From a virus (taxonomy: Duplodnaviria; Heunggongvirae; Uroviricota; Caudoviricetes): a DNA stretch of 43,504 nt. Position 1 is the first letter of the stretch, and every line of letters begins with the position of its first letter. This document shows, in pieces, positions 3,131-16,146 of the stretch. The notes below the pieces were generated by a model. It worked only from the letters and a program-made list of their open reading frames with translations. It was not told where the DNA came from and did not search any database. The stretch spans positions 1 through 43,504 of the IMG/VR virus record IMGVR_UViG_646862326_000012; one strand, written 5' to 3'. The translations under genes were made by a program, and so were the position numbers.

Positions 3131-3474
3131 TGTTGACCCTCCTGTGGTTGTGCAGTTGAAAGACTCATGCCCGCGCGTTGTTGCCAGACGACCCAGCCGA
3201 GAGCCATATCCCACGCCATGTACTCGTTATCACCGTTTTTTGCTCTCCGACGATCGACTGTTTTACCGAAACGCTTTTCCATAAATAATTCATAGGCTGC
3301 GCGTTCATCTGGCTCAACTTCCAGAGATGCCAGTGCAATCCGTGCCAGTTCTAAATCATCTTCAAGCTCAGCGCGAATCTCAGCGAATGCACTCTGTGTT
3401 AAGGCGAACTCAATGCTCTGCACTTTATTCCGTGCGCGCTCAAGCAGTGCATGGTAGTTAATTTCGGTTGTCAT
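3127..3474 (-). CDS. Hypothetical early-left protein (115 aa)
   Basis: ORF with AGAGG ribosome-binding site; translationally coupled within the leftward operon. No recognisable motif. Confidence 0.55.
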   Translation of the reverse strand: MTTEINYHALLERARNKVQSIEFALTQSAFAEIRAELEDDLELARIALASLEVEPDERAAYELFMEKRFGKTVDRRRAKNGDNEYMAWDMALGWVVWQQRAGMSLSTAQPQEGQQ

Positions 3475-4349
3475 ACCCCTACCTCTTCGAATTTCAATTC
3501 TAATTGATCACCCCAGATTTCACATGACTCTGAACACGAGCCGGTATCGAATCGCCTGGCCTGTACCATCGCCTGATACAAATTTCTGTAGTCGCTGTTG
3601 GCAGACATTCTGGCAATTCCGTCAAGCGTCAGGTGACCACGGTACATAACGTCTTTACCTGTTCTGCGATGACCATCCCTGACGTGTTTGCCTGTAACCA
3701 GCTCATTAAAAACTCGCATCAGACCAGGTTCGTCTTTACATGCAAGCCCCAGCTTTTGCGTTGACTTTTTGATGCAGAAAACACAGTTCCCGAGATGCTC
3801 CGGGATTTGCAAATCAAAAGGTTGTTTTCGCCACCACCGGATAACATCCGACTTATCAAAATCTGACAGTTCGGCAAGATACCGGACGCCCGATTTCGGT
3901 TTCAGCCTACGGGGTTCGTCTGCACGAATACCCAGCCATGTGATGTAATTACCTCGCCCGAAATGGTTATCGCAGTATTTCGTGAAAGGGATGAGTTTTA
4001 GCCTGTCAGTACAGAACGCGCCGCCGATGTATGGCGTGCCGTACTTTTTAACCATGTCCATAAACGGTTTAAGTACCGGCATTCGCGTCTGAATATCCTT
4101 TGGCTCCCATTCTGTATAACCATTTGGCTGCCCAAGCTCAGGATTGATATCGACCTGCAACACAGTTAGTGGTATGCCCCAGAACTTCACAACCTCCCGA
4201 ATAAAGCGGTATGTCAGCGGATGTTCGCAACCGGTATCCATAAAGATGTAGCAGACGTTATTGCCAGCCTTTCTTTGTTCTTCCATCAGGTGAACAAGAT
4301 ATGCAGATGTTCTCCCGCCGGAAAAACTAACTACATGAGTTATGCACAT
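3471..4349 (-). CDS. PAPS reductase-family PP-loop ATP pyrophosphatase-like protein
   Basis: 292 aa. N-terminal SFSGGRTS matches the PP-loop (SGGxxS) of the PAPS reductase / sulfate adenylyltransferase superfamily. GGAG ribosome-binding site; overlaps the stop of the upstream gene. Confidence 0.75.
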   Translation of the reverse strand: MCITHVVSFSGGRTSAYLVHLMEEQRKAGNNVCYIFMDTGCEHPLTYRFIREVVKFWGIPLTVLQVDINPELGQPNGYTEWEPKDIQTRMPVLKPFMDMVKKYGTPYIGGAFCTDRLKLIPFTKYCDNHFGRGNYITWLGIRADEPRRLKPKSGVRYLAELSDFDKSDVIRWWRKQPFDLQIPEHLGNCVFCIKKSTQKLGLACKDEPGLMRVFNELVTGKHVRDGHRRTGKDVMYRGHLTLDGIARMSANSDYRNLYQAMVQARRFDTGSCSESCEIWGDQLELKFEEVGV

Positions 4350-4876
4350 TTGCGTAACTCCGATAACTCGTTAAAACGTTCCATAAACATCCCGTAGGCA
4401 TGTCCTGGTGCCAGTGGAATCACTTTGAACATCTCTGTTGCCGGGATACCTTCCAGTACAGGCCAGAAAGAGCCATCATCAAGCCCGAGATCGCGGCGTT
4501 CGGTTGCCAGCATAATGAGATCGGCATATTTCACTGGCGTGCTCATAACAGGAGGTAACCCGTATTTCTCACGGATTACGGCGTCTATTTTTTCTTCCAT
4601 CTGTTTATAGTCAGGAAGAAGGCGTTTCAGTGGCGCGGGGATGTCCTGACAATACGCTTCTGTTGCATCATGCATTAACGCTTCAAAAGCAAACTCCTCC
4701 GGAACCAGTTTGCTGCAAAGCACCGCATGTTGGGCGACGCTGTAGAAGTGTGAAAGATGACCGGCAAAGCGACAGATATTTGAAAGGGAAACTGCGATAT
4801 CGTTAATCGCGATGTCGTCTTTATTTATCCTGTCATAATAAAAATGCTTCCCGGAAAAAGTTTTAATAAATGACAT
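4340..4876 (-). CDS. yfdR: HD-domain phosphohydrolase (5'-deoxynucleotidase YfdR-like)
   Basis: 178 aa from the internal Met MSFIKTF (GGAGAA ribosome-binding site). H..HD motif (LMHDATEAY). Length and architecture match the CPS-53 prophage YfdR as remembered; the symbol is tentative. Confidence 0.7.
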   Translation of the reverse strand: MSFIKTFSGKHFYYDRINKDDIAINDIAVSLSNICRFAGHLSHFYSVAQHAVLCSKLVPEEFAFEALMHDATEAYCQDIPAPLKRLLPDYKQMEEKIDAVIREKYGLPPVMSTPVKYADLIMLATERRDLGLDDGSFWPVLEGIPATEMFKVIPLAPGHAYGMFMERFNELSELRKCA

Positions 4877-5004
4877 TTTGTTCTCCACTTTATATGCGCT
4901 GCACCGCGCTGAATTTTGGTTAAAGAAAACCCTCGCCATCAGGCGATTATTGAGTTAATTACGTTTCCATAAATGCCCCCGCAGGGGCATTTGCAGTAAT
5001 GAAA

Positions 5005-5829
5005 TCAGGCGGTGAAAGTACCAATAAAGGTTTCTACTTTGCTGTCTTTGAATTTTTCAACAAGCAGATCACGAAATTCGTTAGCCATTTCTTCCTGCAC
5101 TGCTTCCAGCTGAATAATGCGCAGAACCAGTACAGGGCGATCACCAGTGATAATGCTGAGGCGTAATTTAAACGGACGTTCTTTCAGGCCTTCAAACGGA
5201 ACGCATTTAAACTCAAATGCTACTGGCATAATGTCTTTGGTTTTCGCTTCGACAGACTCCATCAGAGAGCGTTTGCCGCTGAAGTCATTGTCTTCAAAAT
5301 CAGCGGTCTGGTTTGCTTCAATCGTGATTTTACGGACCGCCGCAGCCGCTTTTGTTGCCTGAATGGCGTCACCATTAGCATCAAAGCCCACAAGGTAGTC
5401 GGCCCAGTCTTCAATCCATTCTGCCAGTGACTTCTGGGAGTTACGCTCGCCGTTAACAGACAACAGGGCAGAGAACGGTGCTGTCTTTTTCAGTTTGAGA
5501 GTGGCGGTGTTATCTGCGTGACCTGGTTCGTCAATAGTACCCAGGTTAAGCACACTGACGGCTCGCATATTATCAGCATCGATAAAGCAGCGGGTGCCTT
5601 CATCTGCAAGATCTTTAGAATAACGGGTAAAGTCATCGATGCTGGCAGTGGAAAGCGCACCACGGAAACGGAAGCGATTTAAATTAAATTTTTCCAGATC
5701 ATGAATGCGGAAATTCTCAGGCAATGCCACAGCATCGGCACCAATCTTACTGATAATTTCATTAACACCCTGAGCAGAAATAAGGGCATGGATTTGATTA
5801 ATTGCGGTTGCGTCTAAGTTCTGAGACAT
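5005..5829 (-). CDS. yfdQ: DUF2303 (YfdQ-like) prophage protein
   Basis: 274-aa ORF, same length and operon position as YfdQ of the K-12 CPS-53 prophage. Assignment is from memory of the family, not a search. Confidence 0.6.
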
Positions 5830-5894: not shown

Positions 5895-6257
5895 TTAACG
5901 ACCTGCTGCGCGGAGTTTTCCGTCAGGTTCACCGGCAAGAGTCAGTAATTGTCCCTGGTCTTCCTGCAGAATAGTCAGGCGACCACCGCGATTGACATAC
6001 ATCGGCGTTTCGGTGGTGTCTTCTTCGGAAATTTTCCCGCGGTTAGTCGGGCGAACATATGAGAGTTTGTGTTTGATTTTTACACGGTTCTCATCAAACG
6101 GTTCGATTTCCAGGTTGAGCGAGACCTTACCTTTGGTTTTCGTGTTCATCACACCGGAAGCGACTTCACTGAGAACAGCGCCGATTTTGGTTTCAAATAC
6201 GCCGCCGTCCAGCTCCCCGATAAATGCCTGCACATCAGTACTGCGTTCGCTAGCCAT
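5895..6257 (-). CDS. Hypothetical early-left protein (YfdP-like, 120 aa)
   Basis: Start at the internal Met MASERS, preceded by GAGGAG. The 182-aa ORF in the track is an upstream over-extension lacking a ribosome-binding site. Confidence 0.55.
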   Translation of the reverse strand: MASERSTDVQAFIGELDGGVFETKIGAVLSEVASGVMNTKTKGKVSLNLEIEPFDENRVKIKHKLSYVRPTNRGKISEEDTTETPMYVNRGGRLTILQEDQGQLLTLAGEPDGKLRAAGR

Positions 6258-6924
6258 TTTGCTGCTCCTCATCATATCGACCCTGCAAGGTCGGTTGGTT
6301 TCTCCACAAAACAGAGAAGAACACCTGCGGTGGCAGCCGCCCGGATGGATTGGGTTATGAGCCCGTCGTCCGGTGATGCCCTTCTCTGTTTTGTAAAAAG
6401 AGCGGTACCAGCCGGAAGCAAGTGTACAAACTGGTACCGCCAAAGCAGTGGCTGTTGTGGTGACCGGTGCTGATCTCCGGCTTGCGGTTATTTCAGACTC
6501 TCACGGGCGTTTAATTGCCCCGCCGAACAGCTCTTTTCCGCAATAGCTGCATGTCTTTCGCGCATCAGCCTGCGCATTCACCACAACGCTGAGAGCATTG
6601 CCGGTGTCCGAATCGAACGGACCTTTTCCCTGCCCAACCCTCCCATCTGAATGGGACTGTCTGGAATTGAACCAGCACTTATGCCTTGCTCGTCAATGCT
6701 CTCATCGTTGCGTCCTGGTCTCTTCCCAGGCGTCAAACCGGATCGCCACGCTGGTTAGGCGTCTTATCAGCATCCTCATTGACTTGCACATTCCGGCTAC
6801 CTGGTTTGTTTGCCCGAGCAAGGAGTGGATTATCCCCTTTAACGTCCCCAGACCGCTAACGACGCATGTGCCATACGCCGTGTTACAACCAAATTTTGTT
6901 TGAATCTTGCCTGTCTCATGTTTC

Positions 6925-6962
6925 TTTTGGATACATTATGTATCTCATAGGTACATTGTCAA
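6925..6962. promoter_or_regulatory. Candidate left operator / pL region
   Basis: Perfect 15-bp palindrome GATACATTATGTATC (6930-6944) plus an adjacent GGTACATTGT half-site. Lies just beyond the cI terminator, the expected OL/pL position. Confidence 0.4.
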
Positions 6963-6965
6963 GTA

Positions 6966-6990
6966 TAAAAAAACCTGCCGAAGCAGGTTC
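6966..6990 (-). terminator. Rho-independent terminator after cI
   Basis: Hairpin cctgc-cgaag-caggt followed by a T-run on the minus strand, immediately downstream of the cI stop. Confidence 0.55.
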
Positions 6991-7001
6991 ATAAATATTG
7001 A

Positions 7002-7676
7002 TTAGGCCTTTATTGTGTATCTTCTTGGTTTTCCCGAGAAAATCACTGTACCAATTATAGAGCAATTACCGTTAATCTTAATGTAAGGCTCAGGCCAGTT
7101 TGGGTTTAATGCTTTGAGATAACGCTGTGTTCCATCTTCTATCAACCGCTTGAAGGTGGTTTCGCCTGAATCGTGCATCAATGCAATAACGTCGTCACCG
7201 TGGCAGGCAGGGACTTCAGGATCAACAAAAATCATGTCTCCCGGGCGGTACTCATCAATCATTGAATCACCAATCACCCGCAAGATATAAGTCATTTCGC
7301 CACAGGGTACAGGGCAGGGATAAGTTTCTGCTGTGCTCAAATCAACCTCAGAATAGCCAACTTCTTTCCATGCTCCGGCCTGTACCCATGATATGACAGG
7401 GACTAACGTTATTTGTTTGTTAGTGATTGAAACATCAGGTTTTTTTGTGATGTTCGTGGTCTGGTGTTCTTGATCAAGCCATCCGACAGGCAGGTCGAAA
7501 CATTTTTCGATGTGCCTTGCCATGCTGTCACCGATATTTTTAGTAGCACCATCTCCCATAAACCTGCTGGTCTGGGTTGGCTCGCGATCAATCATGGTGG
7601 CAAAGGAAGAATTCCCGCCAACACCATCTCTCAGTTTTCTGGCGTTAGACCGCCGGATGTCATGGACTGTTTTCAT
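7002..7676 (-). CDS. cI: CI-type prophage repressor (HTH + S24 LexA-like peptidase domain)
   Basis: 224 aa. C-terminal RVIGDSM motif (S24 serine nucleophile context) and an Ala-Gly (QAGAW) candidate autocleavage site. Divergent from the cro-like gene. Confidence 0.9.
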   Translation of the reverse strand: MKTVHDIRRSNARKLRDGVGGNSSFATMIDREPTQTSRFMGDGATKNIGDSMARHIEKCFDLPVGWLDQEHQTTNITKKPDVSITNKQITLVPVISWVQAGAWKEVGYSEVDLSTAETYPCPVPCGEMTYILRVIGDSMIDEYRPGDMIFVDPEVPACHGDDVIALMHDSGETTFKRLIEDGTQRYLKALNPNWPEPYIKINGNCSIIGTVIFSGKPRRYTIKA

Positions 7677-7766: not shown

Positions 7767-7967
7767 ATGAAAGCGTATTGGGACTCTTTAACCAAAGAAC
7801 AGCAGGGCGAGTTGGCCGGAAAAGTTGGCTCAACACCAGGCTACTTACGGCTGGTTTTCAATGGTTATAAAAAAGCCAGTTTTGTGCTGGCTAAAAAACT
7901 TGAGCAATGCACGTCAGGTGCAATTACGAAATCTGACTTAAGACCGGATATCTATCCGAAAGATTAA
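7767..7967 (+). CDS. cro: Cro-like HTH regulator
   Basis: 66 aa from MKAYWDSLTKEQQ, with GGAGG 10 nt upstream. Small helix-turn-helix protein divergent from cI. The 167-aa ORF in the track is an antisense over-extension into cI. Confidence 0.75.
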   Translation: MKAYWDSLTKEQQGELAGKVGSTPGYLRLVFNGYKKASFVLAKKLEQCTSGAITKSDLRPDIYPKD

Positions 7968-7998: not shown

Positions 7999-8562
7999 AT
8001 GAGGCTAACCGTGGGTAAGCATCACTGGAAAGTAGAAAAACAGCCTGAGTGGTACGTGAAAGCTGTCAGAAAAACTATCGCGGCGTTGCCGGGAGGTTAC
8101 GCTGAAGCTGCTGAGTGGCTGGATGTAACAGAGAACGCTTTATTCAACCGCCTTCGTGCAGATGGCGATCAGATTTTCCCGCTGGGATGGGCAATGATTT
8201 TACAGCGCGCGGCTGGCACTCACTACATTGCGGATGCTGTCGCACAGTCTGCTGGTGGGGTGTTTGTATCGCTTCCTGAACTTGAGGAAGTAGAGAACGC
8301 CGATATAAACCAGCGCCTGCTGGAAGTCATCGAACAGATCGGGAGTTACTCAAAGCAGATTCGTTCGGCAATCGAAGATGGGGTAGTGGAGCCACACGAG
8401 CAGACAGCAATTAATGATGAGTTGTATCTGTCAATTTCGAAGCTCCAGGAGCATGCAGCACTGGTCTACAAAATCTTTTGCGCTCCAGAAAAGAGTGACG
8501 CCCGCGAGTGTGCAGCTCCGGGCGTCGTGGCGTTTTGTGTCTGTGGAGAAACTAACGCATGA
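7999..8562 (+). CDS. CII-like regulatory protein (tentative)
   Basis: 187-aa ORF directly after cro; N-terminal HTH-like stretch. ATGA overlap with the next gene. Confidence 0.45.
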   Translation: MRLTVGKHHWKVEKQPEWYVKAVRKTIAALPGGYAEAAEWLDVTENALFNRLRADGDQIFPLGWAMILQRAAGTHYIADAVAQSAGGVFVSLPELEEVENADINQRLLEVIEQIGSYSKQIRSAIEDGVVEPHEQTAINDELYLSISKLQEHAALVYKIFCAPEKSDARECAAPGVVAFCVCGETNA

Positions 8563-9395
8563 ACAGTTTAACGGCAAATAACCGTTTGTCGCAACAGCTG
8601 GTGGTCAGCGTCGCTGAACACCTGTTGTTACGGCATGAATGCAGATTACCAAATCACATGGCTGTAAGTAACCACAGAGAACTTTACCTGACTGTGGGGG
8701 GCGAGTTGTGCAGGAACTTAACCGCTGGTTTCGTGACGGAAGAGGGCTTTATGTCCATGTTATTCGTTGGGAGCCAGAAACACAGCGCGTTATCTATCTT
8801 CGCAAAGACTACCCGCATGAGTGCTTTAGTCCTTTGTGGAAATTCAGGCGTGATTTTGTTGAGTGTGAAGGACCACCAGCACATTGATTCTGCCATTCCG
8901 GGACGTTACACTGTTCAGGCACCTTATAAAGCGGGTGTCGGGATTGGCGTCCTGGAATTGCATACGGCGACAATTGGCGCGTTAGCGTCTTTTTTGTTGC
9001 TACAACTCAGCTATACCCAAATTATGGTGGGCTGGGTGGGGGCACCGAAAGGTGCGCCGGTTTCCGTATGCGCCGGTTACGCCAACCCTGCTCAGTTCAC
9101 CACCAGCGAAATTGGCGTTTCCGGTGGTGGAAGTTATCCATTGCATACGGAGGCTGCCATCATGGCTACTGTCCCAGCCCTCTCTCGTCTGAATGATGAA
9201 GACTTACATAAACTCAGTTATGTAACAACTGCACTACATGCTCTGCGCAAGGTAACTCTTTCGGATCCGCAGGCGCATCAGGTTTTGGTAGAAACCCTTC
9301 TTAACTTGCAGGCTGAACGTATTCGTCTGGCGGATAAGGCTAATTTTCATATTCACCGTCTCCTGAATATCAGCGGAGGGCATCGTCATGCTTAA
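8559..9395 (+). CDS. Hypothetical protein (278 aa)
   Basis: ORF translationally coupled to both neighbours (ATGA overlap upstream; the next gene's ribosome-binding site lies in its 3' end). No motif recognised; composition is unusual. Confidence 0.4.
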   Translation: MNSLTANNRLSQQLVVSVAEHLLLRHECRLPNHMAVSNHRELYLTVGGELCRNLTAGFVTEEGFMSMLFVGSQKHSALSIFAKTTRMSALVLCGNSGVILLSVKDHQHIDSAIPGRYTVQAPYKAGVGIGVLELHTATIGALASFLLLQLSYTQIMVGWVGAPKGAPVSVCAGYANPAQFTTSEIGVSGGGSYPLHTEAAIMATVPALSRLNDEDLHKLSYVTTALHALRKVTLSDPQAHQVLVETLLNLQAERIRLADKANFHIHRLLNISGGHRHA

Positions 9396-10441: not shown

Positions 10442-10930
10442 ATGAGTCTTTTGAATGAAGTTCAGAAATTCATTGAAGCCCATCCGGGGTGTACTTCCGG
10501 AGACATTGCGGATGCTTTTGCAGGTTACTCACGGCAGCGCGTTCTGCAGTCAGCAAGCAAGTTACGTCAGAGTGGGCGTGTGGCTCACCGTTGTGAAGGA
10601 GATACACGCAGACATTTCCCACGCCTGACTGAGAGAGCGCAGGAGCCGGAACCACAACCAGTTCGTGAAACCAGACCTGTGCGCAATTTCTATGTCGGCA
10701 CTAACGATCCCCGGGTGATTTTGTGCCTGACCCGCCAGGCGGAAGAACTGGAGTCCAGGGGCTTATACCGTCGTGCTGCAACGGTGTGGATGGCGGCATT
10801 CCGTGAAAGCCACTCCCAGCCAGAACGAAACAATTTTCTGGCGCGTCGTGAGCAGTGTTTACGGAAAAGCAGCAAGCGCGCTGTATCGGGTGATGAGTGG
10901 TATCTGTCAGGGAATTACGTGGGGGCTTAA
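10442..10930 (+). CDS. Hypothetical regulator, possibly PerC-family-like C-terminus
   Basis: Start at ATG 10442 with AGGGGG ribosome-binding site. N-terminal winged-helix-like segment; C-terminal LESRGLYRRAATVWMAAF resembles the PerC/Pch family motif as remembered. Weak. Confidence 0.4.
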   Translation: MSLLNEVQKFIEAHPGCTSGDIADAFAGYSRQRVLQSASKLRQSGRVAHRCEGDTRRHFPRLTERAQEPEPQPVRETRPVRNFYVGTNDPRVILCLTRQAEELESRGLYRRAATVWMAAFRESHSQPERNNFLARREQCLRKSSKRAVSGDEWYLSGNYVGA

Positions 10931-11583
10931 TGAGTAATAAATATTGCCAGGAGCTGGTGGAACTGCGGAACAAACCAGCCCATGAACTGAAGGAAGTGGG
11001 TGATCAGTGGCGCACGCCGGACAACATTTTCTGGGGAATTAACACCTTGTTTGGCCCGTTTGTTCGGGATCTGTTTACTGACGGTGATAACGCCAAATGT
11101 GCTGCGTATTACACGGCGGAAGACAACGCGCTGGCGCATGACTGGTCAGAACGTCTTGCGGAGCTTAAAGGTGCTGCCTTTGGTAATCCCCCATACAGCC
11201 GCGCCAGTCAGCATGAGGGGCAATACATCACCGGCATGCGTTACATCATGAAACATGCCAGTGCCATGCGTGATAAAGGTGGGCGCTATGTTTTCCTGAT
11301 CAAAGCTGCCACCAGCGAAGTTTGGTGGCCGGAAGATGCAGACCATATTGCTTTTATTCGCGGGCGTATTGGTTTTGAACTGCCAGCCTGGTTTATCCCG
11401 AAGGACGAGAAGCAGGTGCCGACAGGCGCTTTCTTCGCTGGTGCTATTGCTGTTTTCGACAAGACCTGGAAGGGACCGGCAATCAGCTACATCGGGCGCG
11501 ATGAACTTGAGGCATGTGGTGAGGCCTTTCTGGCGCAGGTTCGCCAGCAGGCGGAAAAACTGGTCAGGGAGATGGCGGCATGA
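10930..11583 (+). CDS. Phage N6-adenine DNA methyltransferase (Dam-like)
   Basis: 217 aa; NPPY catalytic motif (FGNPPYS) diagnostic of N6-adenine/N4-cytosine methyltransferases. TAATG overlap with the upstream gene. Confidence 0.85.
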   Translation: MSNKYCQELVELRNKPAHELKEVGDQWRTPDNIFWGINTLFGPFVRDLFTDGDNAKCAAYYTAEDNALAHDWSERLAELKGAAFGNPPYSRASQHEGQYITGMRYIMKHASAMRDKGGRYVFLIKAATSEVWWPEDADHIAFIRGRIGFELPAWFIPKDEKQVPTGAFFAGAIAVFDKTWKGPAISYIGRDELEACGEAFLAQVRQQAEKLVREMAA

Positions 11584-13155: not shown

Positions 13156-14151
13156 GTGACCGTGAGAGCACTACTGACCCCTGAAATTGCCCCGCGTATG
13201 GGGATCGTATTGTTCAGGCCCGGTTCAGAGCTGATGCCCCTGTTTATGCAGGGGCGTGTCCTGCTGGAGCCTGAGCCGGAACGTTATTCATCTTTCGCCA
13301 GTGGTGCCGTTCCGGCGGCATCACAACCGCTGGCGGATGATCCTGCCGTTCGGGCCGTGTTCCGCAATGAGGCAGTGATCCGTCGTGCTGGTGGCGTGGA
13401 ATGTCTTGAAAGCTGGTTACTTCGTGAAAAAGGCTGCCAGTGGCCTCATTCCGACTGGCACAGCGAGAACATGACAACAATGCGACACGCTCCGGGCGCA
13501 ATCCGTCTGTGCTGGCACTGCGATAACCAGCTGCGCGATCAGTTCACGGAACGGCTGGAATCAATGGCAACGGATAACTGTACCCGCTGGGTGTTGTCTG
13601 TTGTGCGTCGGGATCTCGGTTTTGATGACAGTCACGTTGTGACAATGCCGGAACTGTGCTGGTGGCTGATTCGTAATGACCTGGCGGATGCCTTACCGGA
13701 AAGTGCAGCCCGTAAGGCACTGAGATTACCGAAGCCTGTTGTGCCGTCTGTCACCCGGGAAAGTGACCTTGTGCCTTCGGTTCCCGCCACCAGCATCATC
13801 CAGAATAAAGCGAAAAAGGTGCTGGCGCTGAAAGTGGATCCGGAGTCGCCGGAGTCTTTTATGTTACGCCCAAAACGTCGCCGCTGGGTTAATGAAAAGT
13901 ACACGCGCTGGGTTAAGACACAGCCGTGTGCATGTTGTGGAAAGCCTGCTGATGATCCCCACCACCTGACAGGTCACGGTCAGGGTGGAATGGGAACAAA
14001 AGCGCATGACCTCTTTGTGTTGCCTTTGTGCAGAAAGCATCACGACGAGCTGCATGCGGATACCGTGGCATTTGAAGAGAAGTATGGCTCCCAGCTGGAG
14101 CTGATATTTCGTTTTATCGATCGTGCGCTGGCAATAGGCGTACTGGCGTAA
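13156..14151 (+). CDS. DUF968 family protein (Zn-binding/HNH-like C-terminus)
   Basis: 331 aa; apparent GTG start; C-terminal CxxC...HH cluster (QPCACCGKP...HHLTGHG...CRKHHDELH). Typical position between rusA and Q in lambdoid prophages. Confidence 0.65.
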   Translation: MTVRALLTPEIAPRMGIVLFRPGSELMPLFMQGRVLLEPEPERYSSFASGAVPAASQPLADDPAVRAVFRNEAVIRRAGGVECLESWLLREKGCQWPHSDWHSENMTTMRHAPGAIRLCWHCDNQLRDQFTERLESMATDNCTRWVLSVVRRDLGFDDSHVVTMPELCWWLIRNDLADALPESAARKALRLPKPVVPSVTRESDLVPSVPATSIIQNKAKKVLALKVDPESPESFMLRPKRRRWVNEKYTRWVKTQPCACCGKPADDPHHLTGHGQGGMGTKAHDLFVLPLCRKHHDELHADTVAFEEKYGSQLELIFRFIDRALAIGVLA

Positions 14152-14164
14152 GTGGAGAACGAGC

Positions 14165-14917
14165 ATGAACCTTGAATCCTTACCGAAATATTACTCCCCA
14201 AAATCTCCAAAATTGAGCGATGACGCACTGGCGACAGGCTCGGGTGGTTTAACAATTACGGATGTGATGGCTGCGCAGGGGATGGTGCAGTCGAAAGCAC
14301 CGCTTGGTTTTGCCTTATTCCTGGCAAAAGTTGGTGTTCAGGACCCTCAGTTTGCGATTGAAGGTCTGCTCAATTACGCGATGGCACTGGATAACCCGAC
14401 ATTGAACAAATTGAGTGAAGAAAACCGGTTACAGATCATCCCTTACCTTGTGAATTTTGCCTTTGCTGATTATTCCAGGTCTGCGGCAAGTAAGGCTCGC
14501 TGTGAGCATTGTGCAGGTACGGGATTTCATAATGTATTGCGCGAAGTGGTGAAACACTCCAGAAGCGGGGAGTCTGTTGTCAAGGAAGAGTGGGTGAAGG
14601 AACTATGTCAGCATTGTCATGGTAAGGGAGAAGTCAGCACAGCGTGCAGAGGGTGTAAGGGTAAAGGTATTGTACTGGATGAGAAAAGAACCCGGCTTCA
14701 TGGTGCGCCTGTTTATAAGATTTGTGGGCGTTGCAATGGAAACCGGTTTAGCCGTTTACCAACCACACTGGCGCGGCTTCATGTCCAGAAGCTGGTACCA
14801 GACCTGACGGATTATCAGTGGTACAAAGGATATGCAGATGTCATTGATAAACTGGTTACAAAGTGCTGGCAGGAAGAAGCATATGCAGAGATACAATTGA
14901 GAAAGGTGACAAGATAA
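14165..14917 (+). CDS. Late-gene antiterminator Q (Zn-finger type)
   Basis: 250 aa with repeated CxxCxGxG zinc-finger-like motifs. Located immediately upstream of a strong terminator and the lysis cassette. Confidence 0.75.
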   Translation: MNLESLPKYYSPKSPKLSDDALATGSGGLTITDVMAAQGMVQSKAPLGFALFLAKVGVQDPQFAIEGLLNYAMALDNPTLNKLSEENRLQIIPYLVNFAFADYSRSAASKARCEHCAGTGFHNVLREVVKHSRSGESVVKEEWVKELCQHCHGKGEVSTACRGCKGKGIVLDEKRTRLHGAPVYKICGRCNGNRFSRLPTTLARLHVQKLVPDLTDYQWYKGYADVIDKLVTKCWQEEAYAEIQLRKVTR

Positions 14918-15843: not shown

Positions 15844-15919
15844 GGCCCTTTAGCTCAGTGGTGAGAGCGAGCGACTCATAATCGCCAGGTCGCTGGTTCA
15901 AATCCAGCAAGGGCCACCA
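15844..15919 (+). tRNA. tRNA with CAU anticodon (Ile2/lysidine-type, ileX/ileZ-like; could be scored as Met)
   Basis: 76-nt cloverleaf folded by eye: acceptor GGCCCTT/AAGGGCC, anticodon loop CTCATAA, T-loop TTCAAAT, 3' CCA. Close to E. coli ileX as remembered. Confidence 0.8.
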
Positions 15920-15920
15920 A

Positions 15921-15990
15921 CTGCCACTAGCTCATCAGGAAGGAGCTTCAACCCTTTAAGTGCGAGGTTCGAGTCCCCGGTGGCGGTCCA
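15921..15990 (+). pseudogene. Degenerate tRNA-like element (possible tRNA-Arg remnant)
   Basis: Acceptor stem, D-arm, T-arm (GGTTCGAGTCC) and CCA are present, but the anticodon arm is too short to fold canonically. ACCCTTTAAGT resembles the argU anticodon region with deletions. Confidence 0.35.
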
Positions 15991-15992
15991 GT

Positions 15993-16068
<76 letters not shown>

Positions 16069-16071
16069 TAT

Positions 16072-16146
<75 letters not shown>

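Follow-up and report, generated by a model that had tools for sequence, protein, structure and literature searches.

The early-left leader and its boundaries

The DNA stretch analysed here (the window; 43,504 nucleotides, IMG/VR virus record IMGVR_UViG_646862326_000012) is a lambdoid prophage of the SfV/ST64B/cdtI/mEp460/Ayreon/Stx2c-phage type, and the element described below is a 744 bp interval free of protein-coding sequence (CDS) at positions 6258–7001. The interval separates a cI-like repressor CDS (7002–7676, minus strand; 224 aa), taken from the list of open reading frames (ORFs) and annotated as repressor or cI in Ayreon and SfV, from the first gene of the early-left operon, yfdP (5895–6257, minus strand; 120 aa), a member of family PF27127 with 282 homologues. 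It is best explained as the untranslated 5' leader of the early-left (pL) operon in an N-less lambdoid prophage of the SfV/ST64B type. As was suspected in the first-pass annotation, which was made from the sequence alone, this leader carries conserved structured RNA: structure and covariation analysis revealed that a four-way-junction RNA (E3) and a 93-nt hairpin are backed by compensatory base changes across genera. The complete leader folds with −256.8 kcal/mol (z-score −3.6).

The start codon of yfdP (ATG, 6255–6257) agrees with that of its homologues of 120–123 aa, and is preceded by a ribosome-binding site (RBS), GAGGAG, read at 6265–6270. Leftward of yfdP lie a yfdQ-like gene (5005–5829) and an HD-domain yfdR-like gene (4340–4939), while cro-like (7768–7967, plus strand) and CII-like (7999–8562, plus strand) genes are found to the right of the repressor-like gene. 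The intrinsic terminator of the repressor transcript (GAACCTGC-TTCG-GCAGGTTT followed by a T-run; 6971–6990, minus strand) was detected by the terminator scan and is annotated in Ayreon and SfV. Just downstream of it, the promoter scan found a pL-like sigma-70 promoter, TTGACA-16-CATAAT (6935–6962, minus strand; 11 of 12 consensus positions matched), at the place where a promoter is annotated in Ayreon. Its predicted transcription start is at about 6928, and its −10 hexamer is overlapped by an operator-like inverted repeat (6918–6956). Thus, the untranslated leader is approximately 670 nt long (~6928 to 6258), slightly more than the ~640 bp without a sizeable ORF described at first, while the gap itself is real. 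No second promoter-like site was found by the promoter scan on the minus strand from pL down to the start of yfdP, so that transcription of yfdP and of the remaining early-left operon has to pass the hairpin and U-tract at 6395–6441 described below.

A gap at this position is ordinary in phages of the SfV/ST64B type, and many records leave it unannotated. Window positions 6200–7060 have matches in 102 phage records, and pieces of 6258–7001 are present in 2661 of the 5426 complete Escherichia coli genomes; RefSeq has no annotation beneath the E. coli matches reaching past the yfdP-proximal ~185 nt. The ORFs annotated in the gap of Ayreon and mEp460 are unnamed hypothetical proteins, and are taken to be filler.

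Terminator-like hairpin, long hairpin and the yfdP-proximal cassette

The yfdP-proximal part of the leader was compared among 80 loci encoding YfdP relatives, one genome per species. In the window, this part begins with an intrinsic-terminator-like hairpin, designated tL0 (6395–6441, minus strand; −21.2 kcal/mol, z-score −3.7), which had escaped the first-pass annotation. It has a 13-bp stem (GGCGGUACCAGUU/GGCUGGUACCGCU), a 15-nt loop and a following UCUUUUU, and consequently shows the arrangement of an intrinsic terminator, i.e., a GC-rich hairpin directly before a U-tract on the transcribed strand. The default terminator scan, which is limited to loops of 3–8 nt, does not list it. A GGCGG...CCGCC hairpin with a U-run is found at the same place in most of the Enterobacterales relatives, and its predicted energy ranges from −14 to −34 kcal/mol where the hairpin is complete. 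In many relatives it bears a conserved apical domain (UCUUCAAC...GGAGG...GAAGAUAAUGUUCUGA), while the hairpin of the window is of a plain form. The elaborate version, with conserved upper stem and loops (UCUUCAAC...CAACACCAGGGGGA...GAAGAUAAUGUUCUGA), was seen in loci L016, L047, L051, L056, L058, L065, L076, L077 and L099. It includes a Shine-Dalgarno-like GGAGG and a possible two-codon mini-ORF, AUG-UUC(-UGA), both absent from the hairpin of the window; attenuation coupled to translation, or the binding of a protein, could be its role.

The terminator-like hairpin is followed by a long hairpin of 93 nt (6304–6396, minus strand; −46.8 kcal/mol, z-score −5.7), which begins at the last bases of the U-tract and can pair with them. 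It consists of a lower stem of at least 18 bp around a three-way junction with a CUCAUAA loop that resembles a CAU anticodon loop. In 35 distinct sequences, 92.5% of the cells of the 18-bp lower stem are paired, compared to 28–62% when the register is shifted and 53% after permutation of the arms among the sequences. Among these cells, G-U combinations (30) outnumber A-C combinations (7), a sign that selection acts on the leftward RNA and not on the DNA.

Between the long hairpin and the RBS are located a conserved single-stranded motif, GGAGAAAC (6298–6305, minus strand; family consensus UGUGGAGWAAC), found in most Enterobacterales loci some 50 nt before the start codon, and a short GC hairpin, CGACCU-UGCA-GGGUCG (6278–6293, minus strand), identified by folding. 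Relatives have a hairpin at the same position with other stems (CGGCGG/CCGCCG, CCGCGG/CCGCGG, CUGCAG/CUGCAG or GCGGCC/GGCCGC). The order of GGCGG...CCGCC hairpin, U-run, long hairpin, UGUGGAGWAAC, short hairpin and RBS recurs in most Enterobacterales loci, where the distance from the repressor to yfdP is usually 450–1700 nt, and dozens of Enterobacterales prophages have it ahead of yfdP even though their YfdP proteins are only 55–75% identical. In locus L099, the cassette precedes an rdgC-like first gene, which indicates that it belongs to the operon leader and not to yfdP. The conserved modular architecture of this leader, together with its internal terminator, is apparently undescribed.

E3, a four-way-junction RNA

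The second element supported by covariation, E3, is a conserved RNA of 130 nt (6582–6711, minus strand), defined by an alignment of 20 diverse copies (A4), by pair counts and by a covariance model (R2). A 20-bp closing stem, P1, surrounds three hairpins, of which the first and the last carry T-loops (CUGG-UUCAAUU-CCAG and GUCCG-UUCGAUU-CGGAC) and the middle one is variable. The joining strands (ACGAGCAAGGCAU and UGGGCA..GAAA) are nearly invariant. Both outer hairpins have the features of a tRNA T-arm (a 5-bp stem and a UUCRANY loop); their loops are nearly invariant, and the stems covary. In A4, 90.6% of the cells are paired, against 33–55% with the partners slid, and 14 pairs show changes on both sides. 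None of 500 column shuffles reached the observed covariation values. Model R2 scores the copy of the window at 148.9 bits on the minus strand and 29.8 bits on the plus strand, and its next match in the window is a weak one (19 bits) to the long hairpin at 6305–6394. E3 is preceded by a small hairpin read in the sequence (CCUGG-GAAGAGA-CCAGG; 6714–6730, minus strand), which, with an altered stem, also precedes E3 in many relatives and in phage P1.

The distribution of E3 was surveyed with an exact 18-nt pattern in IMG/VR contigs, so that the counts are a lower bound. At least 119 viral contigs contain the pattern, and in 67 of them yfdP lies within 176–770 nt downstream. In the other contigs, the first downstream gene is rdgC-like, yfdR-like or another gene of the early-left type; among the matches listed there are also three epsilon15-type contigs in which an intact tRNA-Arg begins 2 nt after E3. 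E3 is thus a widespread structured RNA without an Rfam family, and is apparently undescribed.

Adjoining modules share their bounds, ACAAC at the 5' side and GUUGUG(G) at the 3' side (6707–6711, 6582–6587 and 6454–6459 in the window; relatives are alike), which makes some pairings mutually exclusive, such as the base of the P1 stem of E3 and the closing stem of block B (see below). These bounds may serve as linker sequence for module shuffling. We read the modules as variants of a common closing-stem design, ACAAC..GAGAGCAU / AUGCUCUC..GUUGUG, and the 19-bit match of R2 to the long hairpin fits this reading.

Blocks A and B and the mobility of the modules

Two further conserved parts of the leader flank E3. 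Block A (6783–6894, minus strand), recognised by folding and similarity, is non-coding and contains a 10-bp hairpin (ACGGCGUAUG-GCA-CAUGCGUCGU). A P1-like plasmid has a stretch with 89% identity to it immediately 3' of tRNA-Ile, the spacer between trnI and ban in P1 reaches about 78%, and parts of the block are 97% identical in Kosakonia prophages. Block B (6454–6587, minus strand), defined by its fold, is closed by GUUGUGGUGA/UCACCACAAC and encloses the hairpin GCGCA-GGCUGA-UGCGC; the 5' arm of the block shares bases with the 3' end of the P1 stem of E3. Block B is 96% identical in a P1-like plasmid, where it lies upstream of tRNA-Ser, and in Klebsiella siphovirus IME207, and its ends are 93–100% identical in other genera. 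A one-nucleotide indel separates the 96% identical copies, which rules out the 27-aa ORF in this block. Judged by these sequence comparisons, block B is a short non-coding piece that moves horizontally. The P1-like plasmid and IME207 (L005:3403–3549 and L012:2501–2649, aligned with window 6454–6600) share nothing else with the prophage, and a 28–31-nt core of block B (CGUUGUGGUGAAUGCGCAGGCUGAUGCG) recurs with 100% identity in Klebsiella phages of ~160 kb and in prophages of other genera.

This mosaicism raises the question of whether the interval could be non-functional debris, i.e., remnants of decayed tRNA genes and scars left by recombination, gathered between genes where they are tolerated and similar between phages only because of recent horizontal exchange. 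Block boundaries do lie inside modules (the P1-like plasmids and IME207 have only the 3' half of the P1 stem of E3), the leader harbors no intact tRNA, and the short repeated junction motifs ACAAC and GUUGUG could be recombination linkers. On the other hand, the helices are maintained by compensatory changes and the loops and joining strands are invariant, the order of the elements is constant, and, across genera, the leader blocks retain 83–100% DNA identity where the adjacent YfdP proteins are only 55–62% identical in amino acid sequence. Pure debris is disfavoured by the covariation, and we consider it very unlikely.

Coding potential of the interval

The first-pass annotation had noted no leftward ORF of 60 aa or more and no N-like gene in the gap, and both observations proved correct. 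The leftward ORFs lying wholly within the gap reach 52 aa at most. The gap ORFs of both strands have no match in Pfam, and in PHROG they match solely unnamed families of unknown function. The mechanical ORF list contains a leftward ORF of 182 aa with a TTG start (5895–6443), which was rejected as a coding sequence, as it is the yfdP frame remaining open upstream: the homologues begin at the ATG, and the extension covers RNA hairpins with compensatory changes whose interior varies in length among relatives. The sole antiterminator-type protein among the window proteins scanned is Q-like (14165–14917). YfdP was also considered as a disguised antiterminator. Its AlphaFold model, of moderate confidence (pLDDT 72.8), shows a helix and a three-stranded sheet and is not N-like, and a search of the model against the PDB gave no fold match with an E-value below 0.01.

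The gap might instead hide a small protein, either an analogue of N or a leader peptide. Several ORFs of 26–52 aa are available, among them an Arg-rich one of 26 aa (MRQARFKQNLVVTRRMAHASLAVWGR) that starts 9 nt past the predicted transcript start, and the GGAGG-N8-11-AUG-UUC mini-ORF in the terminator hairpin of relatives could couple translation to read-through. However, no Shine-Dalgarno sequence could be read upstream of the 26-aa ORF, and its ATG (6919) is lost in relative L070, which has the same pL, while the block A homologue of P1 follows straight after a tRNA. The indels of block B shift the frame, the ORFs overlapping E3 conflict with its covariation pattern, and the mini-ORF, missing in the window, starts with AAG or ACG in some relatives. 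Since no frame is conserved, a hidden peptide is disfavoured and seems extremely improbable.

Antitermination sites

Lambdoid phages are the textbook case of early-gene control by antitermination. No boxA (pattern YGCTCTTWA) was found in the leader, and the two matches in the whole window are at chance level; a conventional N-like ORF with a boxA/boxB nut site is consequently lacking from the interval in the ORF and pattern scans. A boxA-like CGCUCUUUUUAC at about 6392–6403 was dismissed, as it is the stem end of the terminator itself plus the U-tract, and reads CCGCCCUUUUU in relatives. Similarly, the likeness of GGCGGUAC in the terminator stem to the RfaH ops element (GGCGGTAGnnTG) was discarded on inspection: in relatives, the bases after GGCGG vary with their pairing partner.

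The first-pass annotation had suggested that the leader could carry antitermination RNA of the HK022 put type. HK022 and HK639 are comparable to the window as N-less lambdoid phages with a structured RNA soon after pL. The put RNA, whose antitermination depends on the zinc-binding domain of the RNA polymerase β' subunit, has two stems and a length of about 70 nt and lies at the very start of the transcript, whereas the modules of the window are multi-helix junctions of 90–130 nt, which, unlike put, can be exchanged between phages and frequently follow a terminator-like hairpin. A covariance model (R1) was built from eight putL/putR sequences of HK022, HK639, CobraSix, phiEt88, S9-5 and PdC23 and run against the whole window with filters off. 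Its best match (E-value 0.38; 13540–13635) is unrelated, no credible one lies downstream of pR, and the sole match in the leader has an E-value of 5.8; thus, neither the sequence nor the structure of put is matched by the modules. The conserved put sequence and two-stem structure (GAACGGC...GUCGG...GGCGGGUUCAGGAUGAACGGCAAU) was not found in the window by R1. Resemblances seen by eye (ACCGGCAAUGCUCUC versus GGCAAUGCUGCUC of put, and CAUGCGUCG in block A) were treated as chance, as R1 finds nothing. Put-style copies downstream of both pL and pR were not found, and no leader block recurs in the window, as judged by BLAST and by the E3 model, which finds one full copy only. Two copies are not strictly required, as King et al. 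in 2011 are said to have described HK639 with putL only; according to the annotation of the HK639 record, a single left-hand put site can suffice. In sum, the long leader with conserved structured RNA proposed at first was borne out, while membership of the HK022 put family and short unannotated peptides were not.

An alternative reading is a cis-acting RNA antiterminator that is put-like in function and non-homologous to put. In such a case, RNA polymerase would during transcription be bound by E3, or jointly by the terminator hairpin and the long hairpin, and would acquire resistance to terminators, both the one in the leader and those further downstream. No N, nut or other early antiterminator protein was found, a terminator stands between pL and the first gene with conserved structured RNA upstream of it, and HK639 manages with its single annotated putL-like site. 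A put-type mechanism has also been suggested by Casjens, Smith and colleagues for phage LLS, which has the same early-left operon type and no N (PMC12315714). Against this stand, besides the silence of the put model and the lack of a second copy in the pR operon, the absence of E3 from many leaders of the same family and its occurrence in tRNA arrays outside early operons, as in epsilon15-like phages, where it lies immediately 5' of tRNA-Arg between structural genes. In many relatives, E3 itself is immediately preceded by a terminator-like hairpin, which it would be unable to suppress from there, and the terminator hairpin of L076 follows pL by ~55 nt with no module upstream, which weakens the feasibility of the mechanism. 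We therefore regard an antiterminator of this kind as rather unlikely.

Relation to tRNA and to other RNA families

The search of Rfam 15 (whole window at gathering thresholds, and 6100–7100 at E-values up to 10) revealed no family in the gap; weak matches at chance level (up to 25 bits) fall on the cI terminator and none on E3, block B or the long hairpin. The region of the repressor terminator (6926–7000, plus strand) is symmetrical and has weak plus-strand matches to STnc50 and STnc370 (E-values 0.1–0.8). In lambdoid prophage NC-SV, the small RNA (sRNA) svsR maps to the 3' end of cI and not to the leader (PMC12803456). The Pas sRNAs, compared through the literature, were rejected as a counterpart of the leader, as they lie in other gene neighbourhoods.

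The modules of the leader resemble phage tRNA arrays and tRNA-like pseudogenes in their T-loop hairpins, acceptor-like stems and CAU-anticodon-like loop, and in P1, epsilon15-like phages and lambdoid phages of Klebsiella they are neighbours of true tRNA genes; this likeness, too, is absent from the first-pass annotation. They differ from tRNA in that detectors reject them and in that E3 has two T-arms, a closing stem of 20 bp, and neither a D-arm nor an anticodon arm. ARAGORN called three tRNAs in the window, all at 15844–16146, and no part of the leader; the Rfam tRNA model had no match in 6100–7100 at E-values up to 10. These three tRNA genes (Met-CAT, Thr-TGT and Gly-TCC; plus strand) form an array downstream of the Q-like gene (14165–14917, plus strand), as in Stx phages, where the E3 model gives weak partial matches only, on T-arms. 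Among the leaders of 59 related loci, ARAGORN detected a tRNA only in Phytobacter: the leaders of Phytobacter ursingii prophages (L030:3222–3300 and L038:1186–1264) contain an unusual 79-nt tRNA-Ile with anticodon AAT, which may link true tRNAs with the tRNA-like modules as an intermediate form.

The P1 C4 and P4 CI RNAs with the P4 leader offer a second comparison, as they too have a long closing stem around two or three hairpins, are linked to leader terminators, and are tRNA-like enough for processing by RNase P. In contrast to these, the gap has no match to the Rfam C4 model (RF01695), which in the window matches 9020–9107 (plus strand) only, and no complementary target sites were found. 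The energy of a duplex between C4 and the leader is unremarkable relative to random windows, the method being weak for long sequences.

Such likeness admits the view that the modules are tRNA mimics, released as discrete stable RNAs by RNase P, RNase III or RNase E and acting in trans. As the first products of pL, they would be decoys or inhibitors of host tRNA-directed enzymes or of anti-phage tRNA nucleases, or they would serve as processing punctuation of the operon. E3 combines two canonical T-loop hairpins with a long acceptor-like stem and, in several phages, ends 0–2 nt before the 5' end of an intact tRNA-Arg, so that cleavage by RNase P would set it free. Klebsiella phage GZ7 has, 3' of tRNA-Arg, a tRNA-like element with a GGCCUG/CAGGCC stem and a CCA end, to which the interior of the long hairpin is homologous, and in P1-type elements tRNA genes are found beside blocks A and B. 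Being placed first in the early-left operon and followed at once by a terminator suits an abundant immediate-early RNA, and a long closing stem of similar design is seen in the C4 RNA of the window, a kind of RNA that RNase P matures. Nevertheless, neither ARAGORN nor the Rfam tRNA model recognises any module, and complementarity searches gave nothing specific; trans-acting tRNA mimics appear a rather unlikely account of the leader.

A proposed modular leader with a leaky attenuator

The reading that we favour, as the simplest mechanism, at a probability of about one half and on the strength of sequence and predicted structure, is that of a modular structured leader with a leaky attenuator, giving a short leader RNA and a read-through mRNA. 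RNA polymerase would start at pL (~6928) and transcribe about 490 nt of tightly folded, G-rich RNA comprising block A, the tRNA-like E3 and block B, before meeting the GC-rich hairpin and U-tract at 6395–6441. A fraction of the transcripts would end there as a structured leader RNA of about 535 nt, and the remainder would read through. In the read-through RNA, the 93-nt hairpin would fold directly after the U-tract and, together with the short hairpin before the RBS, form the 5' untranslated region of the yfdP mRNA, where the two hairpins may act as a processing or stabilising structure. The terminator would work as an attenuator or insulator that limits early-left expression and blocks read-through from the co-oriented repressor transcript, and the upstream modules would be accessory cassettes that can be exchanged and that stem from, or are linked to, tRNA genes of phages. 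What the sequence shows is the anatomy of the leader, its conservation, the covariation at the RNA level and the lack of N, nut and put; the efficiency of termination, the extent of read-through, any processing and any trans function of the leader RNA are what we infer from it. The C/G ratio of the transcript is 0.5–0.85 over the first ~400 nt, and the long untranslated leader is predicted to be a poor substrate for Rho because its modules are folded and C-poor.

A terminator within an operon leader that would give a short RNA by default and mRNA on read-through also characterises IsrK of Gifsy-1 and the lambda 6S RNA at tR'. Both RNA forms have been shown experimentally at the IsrK and lambda 6S loci, the Gifsy-1 locus reportedly yielding the short RNA as well as the read-through mRNA, whereas in the leader of the window both forms are predicted. 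There is no sequence relation either, as Rfam isrK matches 8919–8995 only; that isrK-type RNA, with its own terminator within the pR operon, is a parallel case in the window itself. The lambda pL leader, with nutL and an RNase III-sensitive hairpin before N, is similar in being long and untranslated, in having a large hairpin just upstream of the RBS, and in the terminators to be passed. The leader of the window differs from it in lacking boxA/boxB and N (its first gene, yfdP, is of unknown function and not N-like), in being about three times longer, and in carrying tRNA-like modules and its own terminator.

Several points weigh against the leaky attenuator. The 15-nt loop would weaken the terminator, and the elaborate apical domain of the relatives, lacking in the window, is not needed by such a model. 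The invariant joining strands and two T-loops of E3 are left unexplained by it, and suggest a specific partner rather than a folded spacer. In addition, strong early-left expression, if needed, would still require a dedicated antitermination mechanism. A more speculative proposal, which we hold as a tentative possibility, takes up the conservation of E3: E3, and perhaps the paralogous long-stem modules, would represent a new family of phage tRNA-mimic RNAs with a specific macromolecular partner, acting either in cis by reprogramming RNA polymerase or as an immediate-early decoy.

Other features of the window

In the pR operon, an isrK Hfq-binding RNA (8919–8995, plus strand; 58.9 bits) and a C4 antisense RNA (9020–9107, plus strand; 80.7 bits) were identified back to back with Rfam. 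Both lie within an ORF of 278 aa (8559–9395) that related records annotate as an 'immunity region' protein; an RNA-based module of the immI type seems to occupy the region, and the ORF is probably spurious. A gene for an HNH endonuclease of 331 aa (13156–14151, plus strand) is located directly upstream of the Q-like gene. The ORF at 10897–11583 (plus strand) has PHROG matches to PAPS reductase and DNA methyltransferase, while the ORF at 3471–4349 (minus strand) is PAPS-reductase-like by eye only.

Implications for N-less lambdoid phages

A large group of lambdoid phages, including SfV, ST64B, cdtI, mEp460 and Stx2c phages, has neither N nor put RNA, and relatives of the SfV/ST64B type are present in about half of the complete E. 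coli genomes. How the early operons of these N-less phages are expressed is an open point in the literature (PMC12315714). The answer is likely to be located in the conserved, modular and structured leader, which holds its own terminator and, in E3, an undescribed tRNA-like element present in 119 or more viral contigs; exact coordinates, structures and covariance models are provided here. If E3 acts in cis, it would explain how lambdoid phages without N and put pass their early terminators; if it is a decoy, it would be aimed at host tRNA-directed enzymes or at anti-phage tRNA nucleases. Some phages of the SfV/ST64B type carry genes for Shiga toxin or O-antigen conversion, and the control of early transcription therefore bears on their induction and on virulence.

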